This document shows, piece by piece, positions 5,809 to 58,878 of a stretch of DNA of 64,000 bases. This stretch comes from Myxococcota bacterium (GTDB taxonomy: Bacteria; Myxococcota; B64-G9). The stretch spans positions 117,547-181,546 of the forward strand of contig JAKLGA010000009.1 of the NCBI GenBank assembly GCA_022710975.1, written 5' to 3'. The notes under the pieces were generated by a model. That model was given only the letters and a program-made list of their open reading frames with translations. It did no database searches and was not told the origin of the DNA. Both the position numbers and the translations under genes were made by a program. The number at the start of each line of letters is the position of its first letter. Positions within the stretch are counted from its first letter, which is position 1.

Positions 5809-5827
5809 CCGGGTCGGGGAGGCTCGC

Positions 5828-7021
5828 GTGGATCGGCCGGCGTCTCTCGCGCTGCTCGTCGCCCTGCTCGGGGCCGGGTCCGTGGCCCGGGCCGACGGGC
5901 TGGCGTTCCGGGTGGAGGGCGGCCAGGCCGAGGTGCGGCCCACGGCCCAGCGGGCGGTCCTGTGGCTGCGGCGCGGGGTGTGGGAGCTCCACCTGCAGCC
6001 CGTGTTCGAGCGGGAGGCGGGCCGGGCGGCCTGGGTGGTGCCCTTCGCGGTGCGGCCCGAGGTGAGCCTGGGGAACCCCGACTTCCTCGACCAGCTCGAG
6101 CTGCTGACCGCGCCCGTGTTCCTCGAGGTGTGCCGGCCGGAGGAGGAGTCCTGCTTCGGCCAGGGCGGGAGCTCGGACACCGCCGGGGAGGTCCGCGCCG
6201 GGACGGCCGCGCCGGAGGTGTGGGAGCGCGGCCAGGTCGGGACGCTCGACTACGTGATCCTGTCCGCCAGGGACGGAGACGATCTCCTGGCCTGGCTGCG
6301 GGCCGAGGGGTACGCGGTGCCGAACACCGCCATCATCCCCGTGAGGGTCCTGGCCCGGGAGGGCGCCTTCTTCTTCGCCGCCCGGCTGTCCGCCGGCGTC
6401 GATCCGGACCTGCCGCTGCCGAGCCTGCGTTTCCTGCTGCCCGGCCTGCAGAACCCCGCCTACCCGCTGCGCCTGACGGCAGCCGGGGTCCCGGCCGGCG
6501 AGCACCTCGACCTCAGCCTGTGGGTGATCACCCCGCTGGGACAGGACTGGCTGCCCGCGGAGCGCCGCGTCGCCTCGCCGCCACCCGCGCTGGACGATGC
6601 GGCGGCCCTCGACGCGGCCCTGGGGGACATCTACCTGGAGGACCCGGACGGCCTGGCGCTGCTCTACAGCGCTTCGCCGCGGGAGACCGGCGGCTTCGAC
6701 GGCCAGGTGTGCGGCTGGCAGTACGGCTGCGTGGACTTCGCGGCGCTGGGCCTGGCGCGGCCCGACGCCTGGTGCCCGGAGCTGCAGCTCGTGCGGGACG
6801 ACGCCGCCTGGGTGCAGCGGTTCCAGGCGCGCCTGCACGCGACCGGGCTGACCACGGACCTGCGCCTGCGGCCCCGGGCGGCGACCGAGTACCTCGACCG
6901 CGTGGAGCGCGTCTACCTGCGCTGGGTGTGCCGCGACGCCCAGGCCACGTCCGGCTGGTGGGTCCTGCTGGCCCTGGGGCTGGGGCTCGGGCTGCGGCGG
7001 CGCCGGCGCGCTGGCCCTTGA
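5828..7021 (+). CDS. Exported hypothetical protein, tandem paralog of 4603..5808
   Basis: GTG start 20 nt after the previous stop. Same conserved N-terminal blocks. C-terminus CRDAQATSGWWVLLALGLGLGLRRRRRAGP. Confidence 0.6.
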   Translation: MDRPASLALLVALLGAGSVARADGLAFRVEGGQAEVRPTAQRAVLWLRRGVWELHLQPVFEREAGRAAWVVPFAVRPEVSLGNPDFLDQLELLTAPVFLEVCRPEEESCFGQGGSSDTAGEVRAGTAAPEVWERGQVGTLDYVILSARDGDDLLAWLRAEGYAVPNTAIIPVRVLAREGAFFFAARLSAGVDPDLPLPSLRFLLPGLQNPAYPLRLTAAGVPAGEHLDLSLWVITPLGQDWLPAERRVASPPPALDDAAALDAALGDIYLEDPDGLALLYSASPRETGGFDGQVCGWQYGCVDFAALGLARPDAWCPELQLVRDDAAWVQRFQARLHATGLTTDLRLRPRAATEYLDRVERVYLRWVCRDAQATSGWWVLLALGLGLGLRRRRRAGP

Positions 7022-8835: not shown

Positions 8836-10161
8836 ATGCACATGAACCGGTTGCATCGGCCGGCGCTGGCCGGCCTGGGCCTGCTGCTGTCCGTGCTCGC
8901 GCTGGGCTGCCTGCGCCCGGCCGGGGCCGAGGAGCCGGTGCGGGTGGTCATGCCCGGCCTGCAGGCCCACGCCGGGGTGCCCGACGGGGCCGCCCAGGTG
9001 CTGGGCGATCTGGTGCTGGAGGGGCTGCTCAACCGGCACGGCCTGCGGGCCCTGGGCCCCTCGGACATGCGCACGCTGCTGCAGGCCGAGGAGCAGAAGC
9101 GGCTGCTCGGCTGCTACGACGAGGCCTGCATGGTCAGCCTGGTGGGCGCCCTGGGGGCGGACTGGCTGGTGGGCGGCAGCGTGGGCCGGCTCGAGGACCA
9201 GTACGTGCTCAGCCTGGTGCTGATCGAGGCCAAGGAGGCCCGGGTGACGGCGCGCGTCTCCGCGCAGCTCGACTCCCTGAAGGCGGCCCCGGCCCAGGTC
9301 GGCCCGCTGGTGGACCGGCTGCTCGGGCAGCGGCCGCGGGTGCGCGTGCCGAGCGCCCTGGTGGCGCCGCCGCCGGCGGTCGAGCGCGCCCCCCTGGAGC
9401 TCACGGACTTCCGGCGGCGGGCGGAGGGCTACGTGGCCAGCCTGAAGCGCGGCCCCTACGCCCCGGCCCTGGTCGAGGAGCGCCGGGCGCTGCTCGAGGA
9501 CCTGGCCATCACCCCGCTCGCGCCGATGTTCCTGCGGAAGCTCAACACCTTCTGGGCCATCCCGGGCGCCGTGGACGCGGACACCCGGCTGCAGGTGCGG
9601 ACCGCCACCGAGGAGGGGAGCGCGCGGGACGCCCGGCTGCGCTTGCTGGAGTGGTTCGCCCTGGTCGACCAGCTCGAGCTGCTGAAGGCCGCCCACGCGC
9701 GCGGGCTGGAGATGGAGAAGAGCGGCGCCGGGACCCGCCTGCAGGCCCTGCCCTTCGAGGTGAAGCCGGCCCTGCCCGAGGAGCTGCCCGACAGCCCCGA
9801 GCGGCGGGCCTACCTGGAGGCCCGGGCCGGGGCGGTGCAGGCGGTCGAGCGCGCCCTCCAGGGGCTGGAGGCCGGCAACCCCCTGGCCTTCGCCCAGGAG
9901 TGGTTCCAGCCTGGGGACATGTCGTCGAGCGGCCCGAAGGCCACCTTCGAGGAGCTCCGCAAGCACCGCCAGAACGGGTTCAGCCTGCGCCTGTGCCCCC
10001 TGTTCACCGTGTCGACCGACGATCTGCGCCAGGCCGTCGAGCGCTTCCGGGCGAAGGGCGAGGTGGAGTTGTGCGTGCTCCGGACGCGGGGCGAGTTCGC
10101 CAGCCAGCAGACGCTGGAGCTGGCGCAGAAGAGCACCCAGTGGCGCATCCGGGCCTGGTGA
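8836..10161 (+). CDS. Secreted hypothetical protein
   Basis: RBS GGAGGG before ATG 8836. N-terminal signal peptide (LLLSVLALGCLRPAGA). No recognisable catalytic motif. Confidence 0.55.
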   Translation: MHMNRLHRPALAGLGLLLSVLALGCLRPAGAEEPVRVVMPGLQAHAGVPDGAAQVLGDLVLEGLLNRHGLRALGPSDMRTLLQAEEQKRLLGCYDEACMVSLVGALGADWLVGGSVGRLEDQYVLSLVLIEAKEARVTARVSAQLDSLKAAPAQVGPLVDRLLGQRPRVRVPSALVAPPPAVERAPLELTDFRRRAEGYVASLKRGPYAPALVEERRALLEDLAITPLAPMFLRKLNTFWAIPGAVDADTRLQVRTATEEGSARDARLRLLEWFALVDQLELLKAAHARGLEMEKSGAGTRLQALPFEVKPALPEELPDSPERRAYLEARAGAVQAVERALQGLEAGNPLAFAQEWFQPGDMSSSGPKATFEELRKHRQNGFSLRLCPLFTVSTDDLRQAVERFRAKGEVELCVLRTRGEFASQQTLELAQKSTQWRIRAW

Positions 10162-29215: not shown

Positions 29216-31764
29216 GCCGCCCGCGCGCGGCCCTGGCCGCCTGCCTGGTCAGCCTGGGCCTGGCGCTGTCCGCCGCGGCCTACGACGTGGAGACCGTGCA
29301 GACCTCCGGGGACTCCGCCAACCGCATCGATCTGGTCATCCTGGGGGACGGCTACAGGGTCGAGGACCAGGCCAAGCTGACGAGCGACGTGCAGTCCTTC
29401 CTCACGCGCTTCTGGCAGCAGACCCCCTACGCGGAGTACCGCAACTTCTTCAACGTGAAGCTCATCCACGTCATCTCGAACGAGAACGGGGCGGACAACG
29501 GCTCGTACGGCGCGGTGCGCGACACGGCCCTGGGCGCCTACTACAACTGCTACAACATCGATCGCCTGATCTGCCTCGACACCTGGGCCGTGTACCAGGC
29601 GGCCAACGCGGACGCGCCCGAGTGGGACTTCCTGTTCGTGATGGTGAACGATCCCAAATACGGGGGCTCCGGGGGCTCGATCTCGGTCTTCTCCGTGCAC
29701 GCCCTGGCTGGAGACATCGCCATCCACGAGTTCGGGCACTCGTTCGGCGGGCTGGCCGACGAGTACGAGGACGCCTACCCGGGCTACCCGGGCTGCGGCT
29801 CGGACTGCCCGGAGCCCAACGTGACCACCCGGACGGTGCGCGAGGAGGTCAAGTGGAACCCGTGGATCGACGCGGCCACGCCGGTTCCCACGCCCGAGAC
29901 CGGGACCTACTGGGACGCGGTGGGGGTGTTCGAGGGAGCCCGCTACCAGACCACGGGTGTCTTCCGCCCGAAGCAGGCCTGCTTCATGCGCCAGTACGGA
30001 GTCCCGTTCTGTGAGGTGTGCGAGGAGGCCCTGGTGCTGTCGGTCTACCAGCAGGTCTCGCCGCTCGACAGCGCCTCCCCGGCCGGCCCGGTCAGCCTCG
30101 GGAGCTGCGACCTGGCCAGCTTCGAGGTCGCCTACCCGCGGCCGGTGCCGGACACCGTGGAGGTCACCTGGCGCGTGGACGGCCAGGTCGTCCAGACGGG
30201 TGGCGCGGGGTTCGAGCTGGACGCCTCCGGGCTGTCGATCGGCGCCCATCAGCTCGAGGCCGAGATCGCCGATCTGACTCCGCTGGTGCGAACCGACCCC
30301 TCGTCGCTCCTGGTGGAGCGCCAGATCTGGACGGTCCAGGTGACCGGGACGCCGGTCTGCCTCATCGGCGGGGAGTGCATCCCCGATGGCACGCTGAACC
30401 CCGCCAACCCCTGCGAGATCTGCCAGGCGGCGAGCCAGCCCGGCGCCTGGAGCCCGCTCTCCGGGGTGGCCTGCGGCGACGGCCTCTACTGCAACGGCGC
30501 GGAGGCATGCCAGGCCGGCGCCTGCCAGGCCGGCGCGGCGCCCTGCCAGGACGACGGTCTGGCCTGCACGCTCACCTGCGACGAGGCCGGGCAGCGCTGC
30601 AACCTGCCCCAGGCAGGCTGGTGCGCCATCGCCGGGGTGTGCAGGACGGCGGGCGAGGCCGAGCCCGGCAACCCCTGCCGCACCTGCCAGCCGGGCGTGG
30701 ATCCCTCGGCCTGGGTCCCCGACGACAGCGCCACCTGCGGCGACGGGGAGTTCTGCGACGGCCCGGAGACCTGCCAGGGCGGCGTCTGCCAGGCCGGCGC
30801 GGCGCCCTGCCAGGACGACGGCCTGGCCTGCACGGACACCTGCGACGAGGCCGGGCAGCGCTGCGACGTGCCCCAGGCGGGCTGGTGTGCCATCGCCGGG
30901 GTGTGCGCGACCGCCGGGGAGGCCGAGCCCGGGAACCCCTGCCGGACCTGCCAGCCCGGGCTGGACCCGCTGGCCTGGACGGCGGACGATGGCCGGGCCT
31001 GCGAGGACGGCCTCTACTGCAACGGCGCGGAGACCTGCCTGGCCGGCGCGTGCCAGGCCGGCGCGGCGCCCTGCCAGGACGACGGCCTGGCCTGCACGGA
31101 CACCTGCGACGAGGCCGGGCAGCGCTGCGACGTGCCCCAGGCGGGCTGGTGCGCCATCGTCGGGGTGTGCGCGACCGCCGGGGAGGCCGAGCCCGGGAAC
31201 CCCTGCCGGACCTGCCAGCCCGGGCTGGACCCGCTCGCCTGGAGCCCGGACGACACGGCGGGCTGCGACGACGCGCGGCCCTGCACGACCAGCGACCATT
31301 GCCAGGCGGGCGCCTGCGTGGGCCAGCTCAGCCCGGGCTGCTGCACCGTGGCGGCCGACTGCGACGACGGGCTCGCCTGCACCCAGGACGCGTGCGACGC
31401 GGGCCAGAGCGCTTGCTCCAGCTCGCTGTCGGCCGGGGCCTGCCTGGTGGACGGCGTCTGCGCCCTCGCGGGAGAGGCCTCGCCGGGCAACGCCTGCCTG
31501 ACCTGTCAGCCCGGCACGGCGCCGCGGGCCTGGACGTCGGCCGAGGGCGCGGCCTGCGACGATGGCGACCCGTGCACCGCGGGGGGCGCCTGCCTGGCGG
31601 GCGCCTGCGCGCCGGGTGAGCGCCTGTGCGACCCGAGTTGCCCCTGCGAGGAGCCCGCCATGAAGGGCGGCTGTGGGTGCGGGGCGGGGACGGGCCAGGC
31701 GCCGGGCGCCCTGCTGTCCGTGCTGCTCGGGTGGCTGTGGGTGCGGCGCCGGCCGCGGGCGTGA
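29212..31764 (+). CDS. M64-family (IgA-peptidase-like) zinc metallopeptidase with three 88-aa cysteine-rich tandem repeats and MYXO-CTERM
   Basis: M64 hallmark IAIHEFGHSFGGLADEY. Three near-identical Cys-rich repeats. C-terminus GGCGCGAGTGQAPGALLSVLLGWLWVRRRPRA. Confidence 0.75.
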   Translation: MSRPRAALAACLVSLGLALSAAAYDVETVQTSGDSANRIDLVILGDGYRVEDQAKLTSDVQSFLTRFWQQTPYAEYRNFFNVKLIHVISNENGADNGSYGAVRDTALGAYYNCYNIDRLICLDTWAVYQAANADAPEWDFLFVMVNDPKYGGSGGSISVFSVHALAGDIAIHEFGHSFGGLADEYEDAYPGYPGCGSDCPEPNVTTRTVREEVKWNPWIDAATPVPTPETGTYWDAVGVFEGARYQTTGVFRPKQACFMRQYGVPFCEVCEEALVLSVYQQVSPLDSASPAGPVSLGSCDLASFEVAYPRPVPDTVEVTWRVDGQVVQTGGAGFELDASGLSIGAHQLEAEIADLTPLVRTDPSSLLVERQIWTVQVTGTPVCLIGGECIPDGTLNPANPCEICQAASQPGAWSPLSGVACGDGLYCNGAEACQAGACQAGAAPCQDDGLACTLTCDEAGQRCNLPQAGWCAIAGVCRTAGEAEPGNPCRTCQPGVDPSAWVPDDSATCGDGEFCDGPETCQGGVCQAGAAPCQDDGLACTDTCDEAGQRCDVPQAGWCAIAGVCATAGEAEPGNPCRTCQPGLDPLAWTADDGRACEDGLYCNGAETCLAGACQAGAAPCQDDGLACTDTCDEAGQRCDVPQAGWCAIVGVCATAGEAEPGNPCRTCQPGLDPLAWSPDDTAGCDDARPCTTSDHCQAGACVGQLSPGCCTVAADCDDGLACTQDACDAGQSACSSSLSAGACLVDGVCALAGEASPGNACLTCQPGTAPRAWTSAEGAACDDGDPCTAGGACLAGACAPGERLCDPSCPCEEPAMKGGCGCGAGTGQAPGALLSVLLGWLWVRRRPRA
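30472..31263 (+). repeat. Three tandem 264-nt (88-aa) near-identical direct repeats inside the M64 gene
   Basis: Units begin at 30472, 30736 and 31000 (CGDG.. / CGDG.. / CEDG..), with >90% nucleotide identity. Confidence 0.8.
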
Positions 31765-48690: not shown

Positions 48691-48755
48691 GTGGCACCTC
48701 CTTGTCCGGCCCCGTATCTTGGGAGATCCGCGGGCCGGATGCAAGCGGACCGCGG

Positions 48756-48808
48756 CCGGGGCGTTGGCAGACCCGCCGTGTGTGAATCTCTCAGGGCAGC
48801 CTTCGAGG
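48756..48808. repeat. Intergenic repeat family A, copy 1 (CCGGGGCGTTGGCAG..CGTGTGTGAATCTCTCAGGGCAGCCTTCGAGG)
   Basis: About 50-nt element. Copies at 54500..54553 (about 85% identical) and 58017..58059 (5' two-thirds conserved). Confidence 0.6.
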
Positions 48809-48855
48809 AGTCCTGCCTCCAACTAGACACCGGCCACTCGCAACCAGCCACTGGC

Positions 48856-48938
48856 TTCTCGCCACCTCCTTCCTTTCCTTCACCCCGGGGAGGTACAATC
48901 GCGCAAGGCCTGACCCGGCACGCTCAGGAGGGATTCCG
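48856..48938 (+). promoter_or_regulatory. Conserved leader with candidate -10 TACAAT (48894..48899) 40 nt before ATG; duplicated at 52851..52933
   Basis: About 80 nt nearly identical between the two paralog leaders, including CACCTCCTTCYTTTCCTTC, GGAGGTACAATCGCG and RBS AGGAGGGA. Confidence 0.3.
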
Positions 48939-51707
48939 ATGGGGATCATGCGGTTCGCAACCCGCCTCCGCCCGATCTGCGCGATCCTCGGCCTGGCCCT
49001 GTGCCTGGGGGCCCTCCTCGCCTGCCCGGGTTGCGTCGACTACCAGGGGAACGTCCCCTGCGAGTCCGACTCCGACTGCGGCAGGGCGCAGGCCTGCGAC
49101 CTGACCCAGGGAATCTGCCGTCCCATGTCCTGCGTCCTGGCCTGCCAGGGCCGCGAGTGCGGGCCCGACGGCTGCGGCGGGACATGCGGCGCCTGCGCCG
49201 CGGGGGAGACCTGCAGCCAGGGCGGACAGTGCCTCGGCGCATGCTCGCCAGACTGCTCGGCCCGCGAGTGCGGGCCCGACGGCTGTGGCGGGAGCTGCGG
49301 CGCCTGCCCGGTGGGAGAAGTTTGCACCCCTGAGGGTATGTGCGGCGGCGACTACCCCTGCTGCGGAACCCGGGAGTGCGGGCCGGATCCGTGCATGGGT
49401 GTGTCGTGCGGCGCCTGCCTGCCGGGCGAGACATGCACCCCTGGGGGCATGTGCGAGGGCGACTACCCCTGCTGCGGGATCCGCGAGTGCGGGCCCGATC
49501 CGTGCGCGGGCGCCCCCTGCGGCACCTGCGGGATGGACGAGTGGTGCGACACGAGCGGCCAGTGCCAGGGCGTCTGCACCCCCGACTGCACCGGGAAGAG
49601 CTGTGGGGACGACGGCTGCGGCGGGAGCTGCGGCACGTGTGCGTACGATGAATGGTGCAGTGCGGCAAGCCAATGCAGGGCGGCCGCCCAGGTGGGGGAG
49701 GCCTGCCCCTTCGAGAGCATCAACCCGGACGCCGGGGTGTGCGCCGAGGGCTTGACCTGCCTGGGCCTTGCGCCCGAACCCTACAGCTCTCCGTGCTCGG
49801 CCGACGAGGACTGTCTGCTGTATCTCCAGGATTTCCATAACCCGGATTGTTCTGACGGTGGATGTGGGGGTTCCTTCTGCGTCGCCGATTGCGTGGCGGA
49901 GGACTGCGACTCAGGTTTCAGCCCACAAATGGTCGGGGGTCATTGCTACTGCATCCCGGCGAACGCAGGCCCGAACGACGGCCAGGTGGGCGACGCATGC
50001 TACTTCGATCCAGTCCATACCGAGGAGGGCGCCTGCGTCCCAGGCCTCGAGTGCTTTGGCATGGGGCCGTACTGGAACGAGATGCCCTGCACGGATGACT
50101 CCGACTGCTTGGCCTTCCTCCCTGCCTCCTACAACCCAGAGTGTGTCGCTGGCAGTTGCGGCGCGTCTCTCTGCGTCGGCCCTTGTGCCGCAGACGGCTC
50201 CTGCGCCGACGGCCTACAGCCGATTGTGATGGGCAGCGAGTGCTTCTGCATTCCCAGCGACCAGATCGGCACTGGCCAGCCCGGCGACCCCTGCCCCTTC
50301 GAGCAGGTCCATGCGGACGACGGGCCGTGCGCTCCGGACCTCGTGTGCCTGGGCAATGCCCAGGGCGCTGAAGCCTGCGCGACCGTCGCAGACTGCGTGA
50401 ACTTCGGCTACGACCAGGTCTACAACCCGGAGTGCGTCCAAGGCTTCTGCGGCTTCTCCTTCTGCGCCGGCCTCTGCGTGAACGGCGGCCACTGCGACCC
50501 CGGTTTCCTGCCGATCGAATCGGAGGGCACCTGCTACTGCATCCCGGACACCTCGGAGGCCACCGGTCAGGCCGGCGATCCCTGCCCCTTCGACCAGGTC
50601 AACCCGACCGCGACCGAGTGCGCTGTCGGCCTGACCTGTCTGGGGATCCTGCCGGATCCGAGCTCGACTCCCTGTCCCGCGGGCGACGCGGACTGTCTGG
50701 CTTTCTACGCGGCCGCCTGGAACCCCGACTGCGCAGTGGGCGGCTGCGGCGTGTCCTTCTGTTCGGCAACGTGCACCAACGGCGCCTGCCCCGCGGGCTT
50801 CGGGACCTATGACATCATGGACACCTGCTACTGCATCCCCCTCCAGCAGCCGTCCCCCTCCAGAATCGCCTACGTCACCAACCGGAGCGGCCGGTACGAG
50901 ATCTGGGTGATGACCGGGGACGGCCTCGGGCAGCGGCAGCTCACCTTCAGCGCGCCCGACGAAACCCAGCGCATGGGCGCGCACTCGCCGCGCTGGTCGC
51001 CGGACGGCGCCCGGATCGCCTTCCTGTACGGCGCCGGGGACCCGACGCCGGACAGCACGCGGACCATGGTGATGAACGCCGACGGGACGGACCTGCGGGA
51101 GGTCACCCACGCGATCAGGACCTACTGGGAGCTGATTGCCTGGAGCCTGGACGGGACCGCGATCCTCCAGGAGCTCGACCTCTTCATGAACTCTCAGATC
51201 CTGGGCGTCGACCTGGCGACCGGCGCGACCCGGGTGGTCCTGGACGACACCCCGGACGGCTACCTCATCGCGGTCTCCCCGGACGTCAACCCGGTGGACG
51301 CCACGCTCGCGTACATCGCCTACAACACCGGCGGCGACTGGGGCGGCTTGCGCCTCCGCGCCATGGACGGCGGCGCCGAGACGACCCTCCTCGGCGCCGG
51401 GGTCGGGGTCGCCTCGCCGAGGTGGTCGCCGACCGGCGAGGAGATCGCGTACTCGCTCGAGGACTCCACGACAGGCAGCTTCAAGGTGATCGCCCGGGCT
51501 GGCGGGCCGCCCCGGACCATCACCTTGGACCCTCCGGTCGACACCAGGGCGGTCAGCGTGGACTGGACCGAGGACGGGTTCATCTTCAGGCGGTCCGCGG
51601 GCTCCGGCGGTGAGATCTGGGCCTGCGGGGCGGACGGCAGCGGGGCTCACGCGCTCCTCGCGGACGGCTGGAACAACCTGGAGCCGGACTGGAGGAGCGC
51701 GCCGTAG
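48939..51707 (+). CDS. Cysteine-rich repeat lipoprotein with C-terminal TolB-like (PD40/WD40-like) beta-propeller
   Basis: Lipobox LLAC. Repeated RECGPDGCGGSCGAC units. C-terminal segment with SPDG/SPRWSPDG PD40-like blades. Confidence 0.75.
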   Translation: MGIMRFATRLRPICAILGLALCLGALLACPGCVDYQGNVPCESDSDCGRAQACDLTQGICRPMSCVLACQGRECGPDGCGGTCGACAAGETCSQGGQCLGACSPDCSARECGPDGCGGSCGACPVGEVCTPEGMCGGDYPCCGTRECGPDPCMGVSCGACLPGETCTPGGMCEGDYPCCGIRECGPDPCAGAPCGTCGMDEWCDTSGQCQGVCTPDCTGKSCGDDGCGGSCGTCAYDEWCSAASQCRAAAQVGEACPFESINPDAGVCAEGLTCLGLAPEPYSSPCSADEDCLLYLQDFHNPDCSDGGCGGSFCVADCVAEDCDSGFSPQMVGGHCYCIPANAGPNDGQVGDACYFDPVHTEEGACVPGLECFGMGPYWNEMPCTDDSDCLAFLPASYNPECVAGSCGASLCVGPCAADGSCADGLQPIVMGSECFCIPSDQIGTGQPGDPCPFEQVHADDGPCAPDLVCLGNAQGAEACATVADCVNFGYDQVYNPECVQGFCGFSFCAGLCVNGGHCDPGFLPIESEGTCYCIPDTSEATGQAGDPCPFDQVNPTATECAVGLTCLGILPDPSSTPCPAGDADCLAFYAAAWNPDCAVGGCGVSFCSATCTNGACPAGFGTYDIMDTCYCIPLQQPSPSRIAYVTNRSGRYEIWVMTGDGLGQRQLTFSAPDETQRMGAHSPRWSPDGARIAFLYGAGDPTPDSTRTMVMNADGTDLREVTHAIRTYWELIAWSLDGTAILQELDLFMNSQILGVDLATGATRVVLDDTPDGYLIAVSPDVNPVDATLAYIAYNTGGDWGGLRLRAMDGGAETTLLGAGVGVASPRWSPTGEEIAYSLEDSTTGSFKVIARAGGPPRTITLDPPVDTRAVSVDWTEDGFIFRRSAGSGGEIWACGADGSGAHALLADGWNNLEPDWRSAP

Positions 51708-51794
51708 GTTCGCCGGGCCCCCCGGGGCCGTAGGTGCCAGCCGCCTGCAAGGCTGGGTGGTCCGCTGCACACGCAACCACCAGCGAGGGTCGCG

Positions 51795-52769
51795 ATGAAG
51801 GGCAAGTCGGTCGATCTGCTGATGAAGGCGAAGCGTCGGCTCGACCCGCGGGCCCACACGGCCTGGACCGAGTTCCACCCGTTCCGCTCGGCCGAGGCGC
51901 GCGCGGAGTACTTCGCCTCTCTCGAGCCGCGCGAGCGGCGCTGGCCGATCCCCTCGGAGGACCGCGTCGTCGAGACCTCGTGGGCGCGGACCTTCGTCCG
52001 CGTGGGCGGATTGGCCGGCGGGCCGCCGCTGGTGCTGATGCACGGCGCGGCCACCAACTCCCTGAGCTGGGAGTGCAACATCCAGGGGCTGTCGGAGCGT
52101 CATCGCACCTACGCGATCGACAACCCCTACGACGTCGGCCGCAGCGTCTACGCGCGCGACGCGAGCAGCGTCGACGACTACGTGGCCTGGCTGGACGAGA
52201 CGCTCTCCGCGCTCGGGCTCGCGGGCGGGATCGATCTGGTCGGCATGTCCTACGGCGCGTGGCTGACCGCGAAGTACACGCTCGCCCACCCCGAGCGCGT
52301 CGCCCGCGCGGTGTTGCTGGTCCCGGCCCTGACGGTGCAGAACGTGCGCTTCGTCTGGGTGGTGCGCTGCCTGTTGTCGATGCTCGATCGGAGGCTCTCG
52401 CAGAACTTCGCGCGCTGGACGCTCCGCGACGCCTACGAGCAGGGCCCGCGCTCCAGGCAGCTCGTCGAGGAGATCGCCGACGACGGCCTCGCCCTGTCGA
52501 AGAAGTGCATCTCCCGGCACGTGGTGCTCCCCACCAGGCTCGAGGACGCCGAGTGGCGGCGCCTCACCACCCCGATGCTGGTGCTCGTGGGCGAGCACGA
52601 GAAGCACTACCACCCGGCGAAGGCGGTCGCCCACCTCGCGCGCGTGGCGCCCCGGGTCAAGGTGGAGGTCATCGCCGGCGCCGGGCACGATCTCGCGGCG
52701 GTCTTCCCCGAGCTGGTGAACCGGAAGGTGCTCGCCTTCCTCGAGGAGGGGCGGGCCGATTCGCGGTAG
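51795..52769 (+). CDS. Alpha/beta-fold hydrolase
   Basis: HGAATN oxyanion region, nucleophile elbow GMSYG, C-terminal GAGHDL (His). Confidence 0.8.
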   Translation: MKGKSVDLLMKAKRRLDPRAHTAWTEFHPFRSAEARAEYFASLEPRERRWPIPSEDRVVETSWARTFVRVGGLAGGPPLVLMHGAATNSLSWECNIQGLSERHRTYAIDNPYDVGRSVYARDASSVDDYVAWLDETLSALGLAGGIDLVGMSYGAWLTAKYTLAHPERVARAVLLVPALTVQNVRFVWVVRCLLSMLDRRLSQNFARWTLRDAYEQGPRSRQLVEEIADDGLALSKKCISRHVVLPTRLEDAEWRRLTTPMLVLVGEHEKHYHPAKAVAHLARVAPRVKVEVIAGAGHDLAAVFPELVNRKVLAFLEEGRADSR

Positions 52770-52850
52770 GGGCCACCAGACACTCGCGACTCGTCACCCC
52801 CTTCGGGGGCTGCTCCGCTTCGCTCGAGGACTCGCTCGCTCCGCGGCTCG

Positions 52851-52933
52851 CCACCCGCCACCTCCTTCTTTCCTTCCTCCCGTGGAGGTACAATCGCGGA
52901 AGGCCTGGCCCGGCGCTCTCAGGAGGGACTCCG
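52851..52933 (+). promoter_or_regulatory. Duplicate of conserved leader; candidate -10 TACAAT at 52889..52894
   Basis: Same motif order and same 40-nt spacing to the ATG as at 48856..48938. Confidence 0.3.
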
Positions 52934-54487
52934 ATGGGGATCACGCGGTTCGCAACCCGCTCTCGTCCGGTCCGCGCGACCCTCGGACTGGCCCTGTGCC
53001 TGGGGGCCGTCCTCGCCTGCCCGGGCTGCGTCGACTACCAGGGGACCGTCCCCTGCGAGTCCGACTCCGACTGCGGCAGGGCGCAGGTCTGCGACCTGAC
53101 CCAGGGGATCTGCCGTCCCATGTCCTGCATCCAGGCCTGCCAGGACCGCGAGTGCGGGCCCGACGGCTGCGGCGGGAGCTGCGGCGCCTGCGCCGCGGGG
53201 GAGACCTGCAGCCAGGGCGGACAGTGCCTCGGCGCATGCTCGCCCGACTGCTCGGCCCGCGAGTGCGGGCCCGACGGCTGCGGCGGGAGCTGCGGCACCT
53301 GCCCGGCAGGAGAAGCTTGCACCCCTGTGGGCGTGTGCGGCGGCGACTACCCCTGCTGCGAAACCCGGGAGTGCGGGCCGGATCCGTGCATGGGTGTGTC
53401 GTGCGGCGCCTGCCTGCCGGGCGAGACATGCACCCCAGCGGGCATGTGCGAGGGCGAAGCCCCCTGCTGCGGAAACCGGGAGTGCGGGCCGGATCCGTGC
53501 GCGGGTGTTTCGTGCGGTGAATGCATGGCGGGCATGCCATGCACCCCATCTGGCATTTGCATGGGCGATGCCCCCTGCTGCGAAAACCGGGAGTGCGGGC
53601 CGGATCCGTGCCTGGGACTGTCCTGCGGCACCTGCGGGATGGACGAGTGGTGCGACGCGAACGGCCGGTGCCAGGGCGTCTGCACCCCCGACTGCACCGG
53701 CCGCCAGTGCGGGGACGACGGCTGCGGCGGGAGCTGCGGCACCTGCGCGTACGATGAATGGTGCAACGACCTCGGCATCTGCGTCTGGGAATGCCAGCCC
53801 GACTGCACCGGCAAGGAGTGCGGGCCCGACGGCTGCGGCGGGAGCTGCGGCACCTGCGCCCCGATGCAGGTGTGCGACGCGACCGCCCGGTGCGTGCTCC
53901 CGGGCAACCAGCAGGCCGGCGAGCCCTGCGACTTCGACACGGTGAACGTGGGCGCCGGGGAGTGCATGACCGGCCTGGTCTGCCTGGGTGTCCTTCCGGA
54001 CCCCACCATAGGGGCCTGCACCACCGACGGCGACTGCGTCAGTTTCCTGGACCCCCTCTGGAACCCGGACTGCGTGGGCGGCTACTGCGGCGCCTCCTTC
54101 TGCTCGCCGGAGTGCGAGAACGGCGCCTGCGACCCTGGCTTCCAGCCGCAGTACATCAGCGGCCTGTGCATGTGCATCCCTTACTGGCAGGACCCTGACC
54201 CGGGCCTGCCCGGCGACCCCTGCGCGTGGGACCAGGTGAACTCCGAGGCGGGCAACTGCGAGGCCAGCCTGCTCTGCCTGGGTATCCCCCCGGACCCGCT
54301 CGAGACGCCCTGTCCCGCGGGGGACGGGGACTGTCTGGCTTTCTACGCGGCCGCCTGGAACCCCGACTGCGTGGACGGCGGCTGCGGCGTGTCCTTCTGC
54401 TCGGAATCGTGCACCAACGGCGGCTGCATTACTGGCTTCGAGCCGATCGACATTTCGGGCGACTGCTACTGCGTCCCCCTCCCGTAG
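52934..54487 (+). CDS. Cysteine-rich repeat lipoprotein, paralog of 48939..51707 lacking the beta-propeller
   Basis: First ~720 nt >95% identical to paralog 1. One extra Cys-repeat unit. RBS AGGAGGG. Confidence 0.75.
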   Translation: MGITRFATRSRPVRATLGLALCLGAVLACPGCVDYQGTVPCESDSDCGRAQVCDLTQGICRPMSCIQACQDRECGPDGCGGSCGACAAGETCSQGGQCLGACSPDCSARECGPDGCGGSCGTCPAGEACTPVGVCGGDYPCCETRECGPDPCMGVSCGACLPGETCTPAGMCEGEAPCCGNRECGPDPCAGVSCGECMAGMPCTPSGICMGDAPCCENRECGPDPCLGLSCGTCGMDEWCDANGRCQGVCTPDCTGRQCGDDGCGGSCGTCAYDEWCNDLGICVWECQPDCTGKECGPDGCGGSCGTCAPMQVCDATARCVLPGNQQAGEPCDFDTVNVGAGECMTGLVCLGVLPDPTIGACTTDGDCVSFLDPLWNPDCVGGYCGASFCSPECENGACDPGFQPQYISGLCMCIPYWQDPDPGLPGDPCAWDQVNSEAGNCEASLLCLGIPPDPLETPCPAGDGDCLAFYAAAWNPDCVDGGCGVSFCSESCTNGGCITGFEPIDISGDCYCVPLP

Positions 54488-54499
54488 CCGTCCCCTGCA

Positions 54500-54553
54500 G
54501 GCAGGACGTTGGCATACCCTGCGTGTGCGAATCTCTCAGGGCAGCCTTCGAGG
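54500..54553. repeat. Intergenic repeat family A, copy 2
   Basis: CAGGACGTTGGCATACCCTGCGTGTGCGAATCTCTCAGGGCAGCCTTCGAGG. Confidence 0.6.
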
Positions 54554-54632
54554 GGTTTGCCGATACCCGACCCACGATCTATCGAGGAACCCGGCTACCC
54601 GCGGCCACCCGCGGCACTCGGGTGGCACCTGC

Positions 54633-54674
54633 GAAGGCCTCTTCTTCGCGGCGTCATGCGGAAGATCCGGTCCC
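54633..54674. repeat. Intergenic repeat family B, copy 1 (GAAGGCCTCTTCTTCGCGGCGTCATGCGGAAGATCCGGTCCC)
   Basis: 41 of 42 nt identical to 57950..57991. Confidence 0.7.
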
Positions 54675-54779
54675 ACGAGAGGTACCGGCTGCCTGAAGAT
54701 GTGCAGATTGCGCTGCGGGTCTGAACGCGCGAAAATTGTCCAGGGGAGAGCATCGTCCCTGTGAGAATGGAGGTTACCC

Positions 54780-55517
54780 ATGCCAGCGATCCGTGGGGCC
54801 TTGGCGATGGGGCTCGCCCTCTCTTTGCTCTCATTCTCCGGCTGCGGTTAGGGTGCTTCCCTCTCGGAGATTCGCATCGAGCTCCAGGACCACGGCAGCG
54901 CCTCCTGCCTGGGCGCGGCCCACCTGATGATCCGCGCCCAGAACTCCCACGACACCCTGGAGCAACACGAGTACGGCAAGTTCTTCCAGACGAACCCCCT
55001 GGCCTGCGCGGGCGGCACGATCCTGGTCTCGGGCCTCGAACCAGACCACGAGTTCCGGGTCTCGGTCAGCCTGTGGGACTCGACCACCGACATGGATGGC
55101 CTGCTGGCCGAGGGCTCGACCTCCGCCTTCGAGCTCGAGCCGGGCGCCTCCCTACCCATCGCGGTAGACCTGTCGCGCACCGACGCTCGTCCGGGCACGA
55201 TCAGCTTCGCGTCCCCGCCGGCCGACTGGTCCCAGGCCGCCGCGGCAGAGGCGTTTCGCTTCACCATCACCGCGGACGGGGAGACCGTGCCGCAGCGCTC
55301 TGGCCACCTCGACGTCCAGCCCGAGCGCCTCACGGATCCGTTCCCGCTGATCATCTCCGACCTGCCCTTGACAGCCGAGCTTACCGAGTACCACGTGGTG
55401 GTGGAGGCACTGGGCAGGAGCACGCAGGGTCTCGACCCGCCCGTGCTCCACTCCTGGACCGCCACCGCTTTCCTGGGCGGCCCGGCGGTCAACCCTGGAG
55501 ATTCGATCCTCAAGTAG
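54780..55517 (+). pseudogene. Lipoprotein gene interrupted by an in-frame TAG immediately after the lipobox (signal peptide 54780..54851; body 54852..55517)
   Basis: RBS GGAGG 6 nt before ATG 54780 encodes MPAIRGALAMGLALSLLSFSGCG, then TAG at 54849..54851. The same frame continues open for 222 codons to 55517. Confidence 0.45.
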
Positions 55518-55657
55518 GAGAGGGCCCAGCCCGCGAGTGCCAGCCGCCTGCTATCGCCGCGCTACCATCCGAAGTACAATGAGGGAGCCAGACGGCAGGC
55601 GAACGAGAGGGCGTGCGTGGAGGTCGGGATCCTGGAGATGCGGAGGAGGCGAATTTG

Positions 55658-56323
55658 GTGAGGGCTACAGTCTTGGCTCTTGTGATTCTTCTGGCCACGG
55701 GCTGTGCCGAGCAGGTTGCGGGCGTCGATGGTGGCACAAATGGAAACGGCTACTGTTCTTATCGGCTTGCCATCGATGAACTGCTACTATTTTCGGACTA
55801 TGTAGCTCTTGGCAGACCGGTAGAAGCAAGGAAAGTGCTTTTCGAGGCGTTAGCTACTGCAGTTATCCCGCCTGAGGACTTCTTTTTTTGCACTATCTTC
55901 AGTGTGGCAACCATTGACACGCTCAACGTGGCTGTAAGACAAGACGACAATGAAGAGGCAACACCGCCTTGGGGCGATGAATTGGCGACCTACCATGATG
56001 AATGCATGCGAATTGCAGAATTTGAAAGAGGAACACAAAATCTACTTGCATATCCGACCGCACTCTTTTTTGCGCAGAACAACATATACCTGAATCGGCC
56101 ATATCTTATTGAGATGCTGGAGGTCGTGGACTCGAAGGTAAAAGTTGGACCCTCGAATACCAGATGCGGTGTAGCGCTGGAAATCGAGGTGACTGAGCTG
56201 TTCGATGCCGTTGCGGTGGGCGACTTTTCTGCGCTGTTGGAGGCCGATACGTATCCTTGTCGGCAGAATGATGGTGCGGCCATTGATGACCCTGACGGCT
56301 CCGATGGATCCGAAGGGAAGTAG
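55658..56323 (+). CDS. Lipoprotein, hypothetical (low-GC island gene)
   Basis: RBS GGAGGAGG then TTG 55655/GTG 55658. Signal + lipobox LATGC. About 47% GC. Confidence 0.55.
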   Translation: MRATVLALVILLATGCAEQVAGVDGGTNGNGYCSYRLAIDELLLFSDYVALGRPVEARKVLFEALATAVIPPEDFFFCTIFSVATIDTLNVAVRQDDNEEATPPWGDELATYHDECMRIAEFERGTQNLLAYPTALFFAQNNIYLNRPYLIEMLEVVDSKVKVGPSNTRCGVALEIEVTELFDAVAVGDFSALLEADTYPCRQNDGAAIDDPDGSDGSEGK

Positions 56324-56424
56324 AGAGACATCCCCCGCCGAAAGGACCCCCGCAGGCAGGTGCCAGCCACACTAGATGGGCATCCGGGAATCGGGGCTGA
56401 ATGACGAGATTGGAGTTCGAGGTC

Positions 56425-57339
56425 ATGAAATCGATCATCCATGCTGGGTGGTATGCGGCGCTTGCGATACCCTTGCTGATGGTTGGCGCAGAATCCTGTA
56501 CTGGAGGAGCAGGTCAAGGGCGCTACTCTGGCGGCATGGGAGGGGCGAAGATCGTGGGGAGAGGATTGGAGTTCGATTGCCCTGAGTATCAATATGGCGA
56601 CTGGGAGAACCCCCAGAAATTCTATCTATTTCCGAGAATCATAAAGAGTGGCGAGAGAGTAAAAATCTATCTGGCAGTGGAAGATGATGTGTTGATTAGA
56701 GAAAAGAATGCGAATGGAGAAGCAGAATTTTCTGTAGAAGTACTGCATGAGAAGGCATCACTCACCAGGGTGGGCTTTGCTGATGACCTGGGCAGCTTGG
56801 CGGGAACCATGTATTGGGCCCCGGTATTTCTGGGAACGGTTGATGTGGAGACCGATGTGCAGGGGTGGGTGGATGTGAACTATTTCAATGGGAAACAGGT
56901 GATAGGTACCAGGAGCATTCTGGTGACAGATGGCACCAAGGAGGAGTCTTCCTGGACATCAAAGGTGGTCTGTCGACTCGATTGTGGAAAATCTGTGCAG
57001 TTGGACCACGTCCTTGTCTACGTCGACCGCACCCCTGTCGAGTATTTCACCAAGATCGTGGCAGCCACGGGTGGCACCCTCGGCAGGATAGTATCTGTTG
57101 GATTCGGACAAGAGCCGTATGGGAATTGCTATCCTAGTTGCTATTTTCCATACCAGGGCGTTGCGTTGGACATCATTTTGCCTGAAGCGGGATTTCACAC
57201 CGCCTGTGGAGCGCTAGATTCAGTGGAGAAGTTGGGAATTCCTGGAGTGAAGGTCGCAATGCCTACTAAAGAATTCGGCACTGTCGATTTGAACCCGCAA
57301 TGCAGAACGATGGAGTTTCCCGTTGGCGACTGCCACTAG
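56425..57339 (+). CDS. Secreted/lipoprotein-like hypothetical protein (low-GC island gene)
   Basis: ATG 56425 preceded by GGAG. Signal peptide ending VGAESC. No known motifs. Confidence 0.55.
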   Translation: MKSIIHAGWYAALAIPLLMVGAESCTGGAGQGRYSGGMGGAKIVGRGLEFDCPEYQYGDWENPQKFYLFPRIIKSGERVKIYLAVEDDVLIREKNANGEAEFSVEVLHEKASLTRVGFADDLGSLAGTMYWAPVFLGTVDVETDVQGWVDVNYFNGKQVIGTRSILVTDGTKEESSWTSKVVCRLDCGKSVQLDHVLVYVDRTPVEYFTKIVAATGGTLGRIVSVGFGQEPYGNCYPSCYFPYQGVALDIILPEAGFHTACGALDSVEKLGIPGVKVAMPTKEFGTVDLNPQCRTMEFPVGDCH

Positions 57340-57384
57340 TGGGCTGAGGAGAGAGGGCTGGCGCGGGGCGGCGGAGCAGGCAGC

Positions 57385-57729
57385 TCAGTGCAGGCGCGCG
57401 GGTGGCTCCTCCGCCTTGACCGCGTTCAGGTCCGCCTTGAGCTCGGAGATGTCGGCCTTGACGATGACCATGTCCGCCTTGAGGCCCGCCACGTCGGTCT
57501 TCAGCACGGACACGTCGGTCTTCAGCACGGACACGTCCTGCTTGAGGACCCGCACGTCGCCTGCCAGGTCGAGCACCGCGACCTCGAGCCGATCGAAGCG
57601 CGCGTCCTGCTGGTCGAAGCGCCTGTCGTGCCGGGCGAGGTGCTCGCCGTTCATCTGCACGCCTTCGGCCACGGCCTGGATGGAGGACTGGATGTTCTCC
57701 AGGAGAATGGCGACCTGATCCTGTTCCAT
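57385..57729 (-). CDS. Small coiled-coil protein with heptad tandem repeats (DVSVLKT x2, then variants)
   Basis: ATG 57729. RFDQQDARFDRLE followed by DVRVLKQ/DVSVLKT/DVSVLKT/DVAGLKA/DMVIVKA/DISELKA/DLNAVKA. Perfect 21-nt DNA duplication. Confidence 0.55.
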   Translation of the reverse strand: MEQDQVAILLENIQSSIQAVAEGVQMNGEHLARHDRRFDQQDARFDRLEVAVLDLAGDVRVLKQDVSVLKTDVSVLKTDVAGLKADMVIVKADISELKADLNAVKAEEPPARLH

Positions 57730-57917
57730 GGCGCCTCCAGGGTAGCGGGCCTCGCGGGTGGAATCAACCCTCGCGTGCCCTCCCACGGACGGCGTTCCCG
57801 AGCAAGAACAATGCTACGATGCTGGATCCACGAATCCGGGGGGTTACGTTGCCAGGCGGCCCTCGGCGCTGCGCGGGTGACCGGATTTCCCGGACACCGT
57901 GACCGGAAATCGGACAC

Positions 57918-57945
57918 ACGCGCCAGGTGCCAGCCACCCGGAGCC
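57918..57945. repeat. Intergenic repeat family C (ACGCGCCAGGTGCCAGCCACCCGGAGCC), copy 1
   Basis: 28 of 28 nt identical to 58831..58858. Core GTGCCAGCC also at 51733, 55537 and 56360. Confidence 0.7.
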
Positions 57946-57949
57946 CGGC

Positions 57950-57991
57950 GAAGGCCTCTTCTTCCCGGCGTCATGCGGAAGATCCGGTCCC
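57950..57991. repeat. Intergenic repeat family B, copy 2
   Basis: GAAGGCCTCTTCTTCCCGGCGTCATGCGGAAGATCCGGTCCC. Confidence 0.7.
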
Positions 57992-58016
57992 TTCCTGAGG
58001 TGCCACCCACCTGCAG

Positions 58017-58059
58017 CCGGGGCGTTGGCAGGCCGTCCGTGCGTGGATCGCCCAGGGCA
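58017..58059. repeat. Intergenic repeat family A, copy 3 (partial)
   Basis: CCGGGGCGTTGGCAGGCCGTCCGTGCGTGGATCGCCCAGGGCA. Confidence 0.5.
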
Positions 58060-58202
58060 TTTCATGGAGGCGAAGGACAGGCGGGAAGGGCAGGGGGCGA
58101 GGTGCCAGGCAGGTTCCAGCCCCCCTCCGGCCGGAACTTCAGGCCTCCGTGGTCCCGTCGCGCCACGCGCCGTCTCGTTTCATGGCGGATAACAATCACG
58201 AG

Positions 58203-58817
58203 CTAGTCAATGAAAAAGCACATTCTGCGCCCTCCCTGGACTGGGATGCAGGGAAGGCCGTAGGTCGCGTTTCCTGGATACTTGCAATCATCGCAGTCTG
58301 ATTGGTCTTCGCAAAGGTGCGAACAGAATGCTTGTGGGTTTTGTGGGTCACCATCGCAAAAAAGACCTTCTCCACAGGCTGACTGCTGTTGGTCAGTACA
58401 GGGTGTGCCACAGGTGCCTTCTCGTGAACCACATTCTGCCCCGAGAGCTATCTTCTCGCAGAACGACGGTTCACCAAGTTGGCTGACGCAGCACATAGGA
58501 CTTCCGTCATCTAGTATGTCCAAGCAGTCAGAATCGGCATCACATGGAATGGTACAAAGACCCATGGAGGGCCCAAAGAGGCCATACTTGCAGAATTGTG
58601 ATTCACAGTCTTCGTTTTTGGCGCATAAGTCGCCAATACCCGCAGCGTTTCCATCGTTGCCGTCTTGACCATCCATCCCAGAATCAGGAGGCGATTCCAG
58701 ATCGCTGCATCCAAGGAACAGCCATTGAATGGCAACTATTGAGACAAGCAGAGAGACTCTTCGAACTACAATATAGGGTTCGAGGAAGGTCGATCTGCTG
58801 AGACTCTTGAACCCCAT
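58203..58817 (-). CDS. Cysteine-rich lipoprotein, hypothetical (low-GC island gene)
   Basis: ATG 58817. Signal + lipobox FLGC. 24 Cys in the mature part. Confidence 0.55.
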   Translation of the reverse strand: MGFKSLSRSTFLEPYIVVRRVSLLVSIVAIQWLFLGCSDLESPPDSGMDGQDGNDGNAAGIGDLCAKNEDCESQFCKYGLFGPSMGLCTIPCDADSDCLDILDDGSPMCCVSQLGEPSFCEKIALGAECGSREGTCGTPCTDQQQSACGEGLFCDGDPQNPQAFCSHLCEDQSDCDDCKYPGNATYGLPCIPVQGGRRMCFFID

Positions 58818-58830
58818 GGCTACCTCGCCC

Positions 58831-58858
58831 ACGCGCCAGGTGCCAGCCACCCGGAGCC
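58831..58858. repeat. Intergenic repeat family C, copy 2
   Basis: Identical 28-mer, 20 nt upstream (gene sense: inverted) of ATG 58817. Confidence 0.7.
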
Positions 58859-58878
58859 GGGCTCCTCGAGGCTCGCGC

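Follow-up and report, generated by a model that had tools for sequence, protein, structure and literature searches.

Concerted evolution and gene conversion are known between bacterial paralogs, for example between tuf genes and within families of surface proteins, while repetitive extragenic palindromic (REP) sequences, bacterial interspersed mosaic elements (BIMEs) and elements resembling miniature inverted-repeat transposable elements (MITEs) form dispersed palindromic repeats between genes. In the tandem lpl (lipoprotein-like) paralogs of Staphylococcus aureus (nuSa-alpha), homologous recombination at conserved stretches shuffles neighboring genes (Tsuru and Kobayashi 2008, PMC2568036). 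Within individual lpl open reading frames (ORFs), the 5' part yields a phylogeny incongruent with that of the 3' part, and the intergenic or leader sequence is exchanged together with the 5' coding part next to it (PMC2568036). Cysteine-rich repeats are also found in the TraA-type surface receptors of Myxococcus xanthus, together with a variable domain and MYXO-CTERM (PMC13184517). Here, we describe two cysteine-rich paralogs, P1 and P2, which lie on either side of an alpha/beta-fold hydrolase gene in a 64,000-nucleotide (nt) stretch of Myxococcota DNA (GenBank assembly GCA_022710975.1, contig JAKLGA010000009.1, positions 117,547 to 181,546 of the forward strand; hereafter the window, to whose first letter all positions refer unless another contig is named). 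P2 is a mosaic, in which a P1-like 5' end is joined to sequence that resembles a third paralog, P3, from another contig.

P1 (48939..51707, forward strand) encodes 922 amino acids (aa), comprising a signal peptide, five 37-aa cysteine units, four 98-aa modules and a propeller, while P2 (52934..54487, forward strand; 517 aa) comprises a signal peptide, seven 37-aa units and two 98-aa modules. That two Cys-rich paralogs flank an alpha/beta hydrolase had already been described in an earlier note on this sequence, and both the ORF coordinates and the paralogy hold. Protein look-up identified P1 as PK668_18270, P2 as an exact match to PK668_18280 and the hydrolase as an exact match to HOX45551.1. 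Homology searches further revealed a close paralog on another contig (P3, PK668_21680; 806 aa, contig L016, 9059-11479) as well as a fourth paralog, P4, in another bin (contig L017). P1 and P2 reside on one contig; P3 shares their locus-tag prefix (PK668), that is, their metagenome-assembled genome (MAG), comes from the same samples and is tied to them via this bin and sample co-occurrence.

Alignment of P1 and P2 revealed a collinear block of 92.8-93.3% identity between 48860-49509 and 52856-53504 (both forward strand; about 93% overall), which on the P2 side consists of the 5' leader (52856-52933) and codons 1-190. The corresponding P1 leader (48860..48938, forward strand) is 88.6% identical to that of P2; within the family, leader similarity is confined to these two genes, and upstream of 48860/52856 no P1-P2 similarity was found. 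Past a 111-nt indel, collinearity resumes for another 144 nt at 91% identity (49516-49659 to 53622-53765). The earlier note had assigned more than 95% identity to about 720 coding nt plus about 80 nt of leader. The leader part of this extent was confirmed (79 nt), while the high-identity coding part is limited to codons 1-190, and the identity itself was overestimated for the block, the leader and the last 144 nt alike; only the first three units (u1-u3) reach about 95% each.

A 60-nt sliding profile along P2 was P1-like (83-98%) from 52844 to 53503 and P3/P4-like (78-93%) from 53624 to about 54283, placing the switch between 53504 and 53624. Within this alignment, the P3-like segment (53528..54283, forward strand) showed 78-93% identity to P3 but only 45-65% to P1. 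Informative sites in the P1/P2/P3 triplet were distributed accordingly, with P1-like to P3-like counts of 200:21 to the left of 53527 and 69:246 to the right (Fisher p = 8e-61). At the N-terminus and first unit, P1 and P2 share 93% identity (synonymous divergence, dS, 0.08), compared with 66% for P2 and P3 (dS 0.59). The first 98-aa module of P2, in turn, is 88% identical to the first module of P3 (dS 0.12) and 57-65% identical to any P1 module, and the second is 86% identical to the second module of P3 (dS 0.19) and 78% to the fourth of P1. The propellers of P1 and P3 are 77% identical (dS 0.50). The 3' end of P2 (54284..54495, forward strand) switches back and forth between short stretches resembling P1 and P3. 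The last 25 nt resemble P1, the TAG stop codon is aligned to a CAG codon of P1, and eight further P1-identical bases follow the stop before homology ends at 54495. P2 is hence a mosaic with a supported breakpoint near 53527 and phylogenetic incongruence on either side.

Synonymous divergence between P1 and P2 is similarly non-uniform. Over codons 1-168 dS is 0.089 with a dN/dS of about 0.6, as compared with a dS of 0.35 between unit 5 of P1 and unit 6 of P2, 0.38 between the best-matching modules (module 4 of P1 and module 2 of P2) and 0.6-2.4 between all other module pairs. Signal peptides and translation-initiation regions are often constrained, and the conserved block could in principle go back to an old duplication whose leader, signal peptide and first units have since been held under strong purifying selection. 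Selection of this kind is hardly credible here, as dS is low as well (0.09), dN/dS is fairly high, and P3 and P4 reach just 66-73% identity in this region, so that the family shows no general constraint there.

We favor the reading that P1 and P2 belong to an old multigene family and that a fairly recent gene-conversion tract links the two neighbors, to which we assign a probability of about 0.72. Gene conversion had been named as an option in the earlier note, and it is supported by the breakpoint, by the incongruence and by the low dS inside the tract, as well as by P1 variants from other assemblies whose sole differences are P2-type patches (see below). P1 and P2 would then be adjacent members of an old, modular family of disulfide-rich secreted proteins in one uncultured myxococcote from anaerobic digesters, a family that would evolve by homologous exchange among its members. 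One non-reciprocal exchange between these direct-repeat neighbors, 4 kb apart, would have homogenized the first about 650 nt, that is, 79 nt of leader followed by the coding sequence for the signal peptide and the initial 3.6 Cys units (about 570 coding nt). Two runs of 65 nt and 75 nt, perfectly identical between P1 and P2, could have been substrates for homologous recombination. P1 most probably acted as the donor: the 5' end of P2 does not group with P3, whereas the remainder of P2 does. That remainder would retain an older ancestry common with P3, plus a few short P1-like patches towards its 3' end.

Unequal recombination in register, between 111-nt units or between ~294-nt modules, may have changed their numbers (5 versus 7 and 4 versus 2, respectively). 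The gain of a single Cys unit by P2, as previously suggested, does not match the count, which differs by two, and the earlier description had not included the difference in 98-aa modules (two in P2 versus four in P1). Unit 4 of P1 is itself chimeric, its first 67 nt matching unit 4 of P2 (59/67) and its last 44 nt matching unit 5 of P2 (38/44). The chimeric unit makes a loss by deletion in P1 no less probable than a gain in P2.

The absence of the propeller from P2, in turn, looks secondary, because P1 and P3 both carry one and the P1-like linker runs past the P2 stop codon. P2 would have lost its C-terminal propeller through a TAG in place of the CAG codon, with the homology break following 8 nt further on. 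That P2 lacks the TolB-like domain had been noted before and was corroborated by a tblastn search of the window with the P1 C-terminus, which returned no propeller remnant either downstream of P2 or beyond the A and B repeats (the former described below).

The same mosaic pattern would result from a partial duplication and fusion, in which a single ectopic or illegitimate recombination event joined a copy of the P1 leader and first ~650 nt to a P3-like gene truncated at its 5' end. The upstream boundary at 48860/52856, sharp and devoid of flanking similarity, would agree with such an event. The breakpoint, however, lies in register inside homologous 111-nt units, and the extra short P1-like patches occur at the P2 3' end; both are better accommodated by repeated homologous exchange, and we regard the fusion as unlikely. 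That it would give the same picture nevertheless counts against the gene-conversion reading, as do four further points. A conserved-synteny outgroup is missing: scanning contigs with the hydrolase gave only distant relatives (43% and 21% identity) and no syntenic locus, so that the order and direction of events are deduced from three or four paralogs. P3 is placed in this genome by MAG binning rather than by a closed genome. The alignment of the repeat units is partly ambiguous, with unit 5 of P1 and unit 6 of P2 being 86% identical in a unit-by-unit comparison although the global profile gives low P1 identity there. Finally, the P1 variants seen in other assemblies (see below) could stem from assembler path-switching between near-identical stretches.

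The two genes are accompanied by copies of a short repeat, repeat A. The earlier note had placed one copy upstream of P1 and one downstream of P2, and alignment verified both: 48752-48811 and 54497-54556 are 85% identical over 60 nt and 91.5% identical over a 47-nt core, and a 31-nt core pattern gave 2 matches with 0 expected by chance. We built a profile from six copies and scanned the whole window as well as other contigs with nhmmer. The window contains three copies in total, all on the forward strand, namely a solo copy in the divergent intergenic region between a Bax1-I-like gene and P1 (48752..48815; E 5e-17), a second solo copy abutting the end of the P2 homology (54496..54564; E 7e-18) and a third, more diverged one (58012..58080; E 7.5e-17; 68% over 60 nt, 58013-58072). 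A degenerate 37-nt core pattern retrieved further copies from other metagenome contigs; with the profile matches on L013 (6) and L015 (2), at least nine copies lie on L013, L014 and L015, with unalignable flanks. These contigs probably derive from the same organism, because two of the contig names match contigs holding PK668-tagged paralogs and L014 comes from the same Joint Genome Institute (JGI) assembly as one of the loci identical to the window (L002, see below).

On L013, repeat A also occurs in inverted pairs (4796-4962 and 9226-9394) of about 165 nt, with halves about 40 nt apart, and further solo copies lie within the same 5-kb stretch. One inverted pair forms a near-perfect DNA hairpin (-56.3 kcal/mol, z = -4.94); RNA from the solo copies in the window folds no better than shuffled sequences, and an Rfam E-value scan of 44-62 kb returned no RNA family for repeats A or B. 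Both on L014 and after P2, only a few bases separate the repeat from a preceding stop codon. Repeat A hence behaves as a REP/MITE-like element dispersed among intergenic regions, of which the window copies are solo halves. Two other identities were rejected. A sigma-54 reading of the TTGGCA...GC core failed by eye on its GG-GC spacing of 7-8 nt instead of 10, and an integron- or attC-like arrangement of the same-orientation copies is incompatible with their spacings of 5.7 and 3.5 kb, several genes per interval, the inverted pairs elsewhere and the lack of an integrase.

These data bear on the central proposal of the earlier note, a recent tandem or segmental duplication of ~5.8 kb, bounded by repeat A and produced by crossover between its copies or carried along with them, followed by unit gain and propeller loss. 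Two same-orientation copies do bracket P1, the hydrolase and P2, the 5' parts of the paralogs are 93% identical, and the downstream copy starts at 54496, exactly where P2-P1 homology stops. A repeat-mediated crossover would have left a copy between the hydrolase and P2, whereas nhmmer found none at this internal junction (52770-52855), and the left edge of the shared block (48860) starts 49 nt past the upstream copy. High similarity is restricted to about 650-800 nt, hydrolase and propeller being present only once; the 5' block has diverged about four times less than the distal matched parts, and most of P2 is nearer to P3 than to P1. In addition, repeat A is dispersed, with a third copy in the window and more on at least three other contigs. 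The proposed duplication is thus largely refuted and very improbable. Under the gene-conversion reading, the repeat A copies would simply sit beside the genes and would have had no part in creating the duplication, although an insertion or deletion associated with repeat A may have removed the propeller-coding part of P2, as the position of the downstream copy would suggest. The main value of the analysis is corrective: the locus should be taken neither for a fresh repeat-mediated duplication nor for a mobile unit bounded by repeat A. As genome evolution it is ordinary, with repetitive surface-protein paralogs exchanging segments.

The third repeat A copy lies in a 1.1-kb intergenic region (57730-58878) that is dense in short dispersed repeats and also includes repeat B. 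Within it, 57877-57907 matches L013 (97%), 57917-57945 is repeated at 58830-58858 (29 nt, 100%) and 58119-58174 matches the P4-bearing contig L017 (93%), whose gene is binned to a 'Verrucomicrobiota' MAG, hinting at mis-binning.

Misassembly of a repetitive family, a concern raised in the earlier note, could likewise generate two copies or equip P2 with a P1-like 5' end. The MAG carrying the PK668 tags was assembled from JGI metagenomes 3300009776/3300025706, which we take to be anaerobic-digester samples, and from several European Nucleotide Archive (ENA) and Logan runs. Two 21-kb loci on large JGI contigs (L001 and L002) are 100% identical to the window. Contigs of different sample and assembler origin span the unique junctions: L003 (a further JGI sample) covers 49259-54078 and thus P1, the hydrolase, P2 and the internal breakpoint, while L005 (ENA; a SPAdes-style NODE contig) covers 49387-52847 and L006 (Logan) covers 51290-53076. 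The P2 protein is present on seven contigs of 0.2-1 Mb each. Because of these identical loci, junction-spanning contigs and P2 occurrences, the two-copy structure is not a collapsed or invented repeat; P1 and P2 are both real, and independent metagenome assemblies agree on them.

Some P1 versions differ from the one in the window. Contig L004 (ENA, MEGAHIT; 3986 nt) represents a single 3995-nt period of the repeat made up of P1, the hydrolase and P2. Its sequence follows P2 as far as 53179 and P1 from 49250 onwards, the change falling within the 65-nt identical run, and the protein it encodes (P0126) is P2-type at aa 4-82 (window 48939-49184). We judge this obvious one-period chimera to be mostly an artifact. 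The deposited PK668_18270 starts three residues later than the window P1 and differs from it at six residues. HOX45550.1/HRY95910.1 and an ENA contig carry P2 residues at aa 122, 125, 128, 132, 134 and 143 (window 49302-49366), a patch whose two endpoints lie within or adjacent to the identical runs of 65 and 75 nt. L004 and the P2-type patches in these National Center for Biotechnology Information (NCBI) and ENA versions of P1 are what an artifact would have in its favor, and they imply that the repeats either confuse assemblers or recombine. Against it, divergence of about 7% between the two copies shows that the block was neither collapsed nor copied, the 21-kb structure is identical in two JGI assemblies, and the junctions and P2 recur as described above. 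We consider an assembly artifact at the level of the two genes extremely improbable.

The patch variants of P1 are either real conversion or unequal-crossover products from the population or results of assembler path-switching. If real, they would show gene conversion still at work in a natural population. A more far-reaching and rather doubtful possibility is that P1 and P2, perhaps with P3, form a recombination-driven system of surface-protein variation in a free-living myxococcote. If so, the leader and signal-peptide cassette together with the in-register Cys units would be the exchange substrates, populations would continuously recombine stalk length, 12-Cys modules and propeller into new arrangements, and both the alleles with P2-type patches (aa 122-143) and the L004 5' end would be real recombinants.

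Regarding the proteins themselves, P1 carries a short Cys-containing N-terminal piece between its signal peptide and the 37-aa units, and its leader contains a GGAGGG Shine-Dalgarno sequence 6 nt ahead of the ATG. The lipobox rule asks for [LVI..][ASTVIL][GAS]C after a positively charged n-region and a hydrophobic h-region. Read by eye, P1 (...LGALLA-C29, LLAC) and P2 (...LGAVLA-C29, VLAC) each show such a motif following RFATRxR. Both fit the permissive PROSITE-type rule; the Cys aligns differently in P3 and P4. The family members are probably lipoproteins and may act at the cell surface.

The five 37-aa units of P1 (49110-49664, forward strand) have eight cysteines and measure exactly 111 nt each; P2 has seven such units (53105-53881, forward strand). 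Their consensus, ...CxPxCxGKECGDDGCGGSCGxCxxGxxCxxxGxC, is widespread, with 2862 matches in metagenomic Myxococcota, Bradymonadales and Sandaracinaceae proteins, which contain 5-13 tandem copies each and in many cases 7-11. The 98-aa module, present four times in P1 (49686-50857, forward strand) and twice in P2 (53909-54484, forward strand), has 12 invariant cysteines, with six predicted disulfides, and is rare: among 1.84 billion cluster representatives, a search at E <= 0.001 returned only 122. Neither the unit nor the module had a match in Pfam, NCBIfam or the Protein Data Bank (PDB), and a literature search with the motif GCGGSCG returned nothing relevant. The two disulfide-rich modules have confident predicted folds, with no described family or solved structural analogue found in these searches.

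The C-terminal region of P1 (about 50858-51704, forward strand) resembles a PD40/TolB-like beta-propeller. It scored 21.7 bits against PF07676 (PD40; cutoff 20.9) for the whole protein, with no single stretch passing alone, and matched the propeller part of TIGR02800 (TolB) partially (E 5.8e-16; 58 bits versus a cutoff of 343). By these profile scores, the domain appears to be propeller-like and not that of a TolB ortholog. Cys density, the probable lipobox and the terminal propeller tentatively suggest envelope or surface proteins, in which a rigid, disulfide-bonded stalk might present binding modules. Other tandem arrays occur in GC-rich coding sequence of the window at 3080-4210, 4676-6718 and 30369-31609, with periods of 171/306, 1201 and 264 nt; in some, the copies contain Cys-rich motifs weakly like the CG..C..C part of the 37-aa unit. 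These arrays suggest several additional repetitive proteins, which are probably secreted.

The alpha/beta-fold hydrolase gene (51795-52769, forward strand) is present in a single copy between P1 and P2, outside the duplicated sequence. Its closest homologs (87-90% nt and 70-86% aa identity) are found in unrelated contexts without Cys-rich genes, and nucleotide homology is limited to the ORF (window 51784-52757). The position of the gene is therefore lineage-specific, given that its relatives sit in different neighborhoods and are homologous within the ORF only. One relative (L020) lies among resolvase, transposase, Fic and toxin-antitoxin genes, which suggests that the hydrolase gene moves horizontally or relocates often. 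Upstream of P1, the opposite strand encodes unrelated Bax1-I/YccA-like, YgaP-like transmembrane and 5'-nucleotidase-like proteins. A scan of 48.6-55 kb for sigma-70 promoters and terminators gave nothing above chance.

Just downstream of P2, a 3.3-kb island (54628-57991) stands out by its low GC content (0.595 versus 0.71-0.72 in the flanks; the window as a whole is GC-rich at about 72%). Its ORFs at 55655-56323 and 56401-57339 have third-position GC contents (GC3) of 0.51-0.57 versus about 0.9 elsewhere, and copies of a 47-nt direct repeat (54628-54674 / 57945-57991; 96-98% identical) mark its two ends. The island contains no integrase and no tRNA, its ORFs have no matches in Pfam, NCBIfam or PHROG, and it looks like a recently acquired insertion. 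At its right edge, a small reverse-strand ORF (57385-57786) encodes heptad-like tandem repeats (DVSVLKTDVSVLKTDVAGLKADM; DNA period 63-69 nt) and had no matches other than weak ones of the coiled-coil type (Lpp-like, phage minor head or needle).

Compared with known systems, P1 resembles TolB/PD40 proteins in its propeller-like C-terminus but has no TolB N-terminal domain, and no Tol-Pal genes were found among the neighbors identified here. Repeat A resembles REP, BIME and MITE elements in its core of about 50 nt, its intergenic location, often just past stop codons, and its occurrence as solo copies and inverted hairpin pairs; it differs from them in that no REP-associated tyrosine transposase (RAYT) or other transposase was identified in the stretches of about 10 kb read around the matches, and no Rfam match was obtained. 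Like TraA, P1 and P2 are Myxococcota secreted proteins that combine tandem Cys-rich repeats with another domain, a likeness of architecture rather than homology. Unlike TraA, neither matched a PA14-like variable domain or a MYXO-CTERM model, and the N-terminal lipobox is the likely anchor.

As in gene conversion between bacterial paralogs more generally, the P1/P2 tract is sharply bounded, has a low dS, includes a non-coding flank and links direct-repeat paralogs a few kilobases apart, where RecA-dependent exchange could start from identical runs of 65-75 nt. In contrast to such cases, the tract is 7% diverged and so not very recent, and the gene is only partly homogenized. The closest evolutionary analogue is the lpl cluster of S. 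aureus. The present family differs from it in comprising only two linked copies plus unlinked ones, in consisting of unrelated, modular Cys-rich proteins and in its exchange substrate, which is the repeat units here and one central conserved region in lpl. In both, the 5' and 3' parts of the genes are phylogenetically incongruent, and the leader moves with the 5' part.

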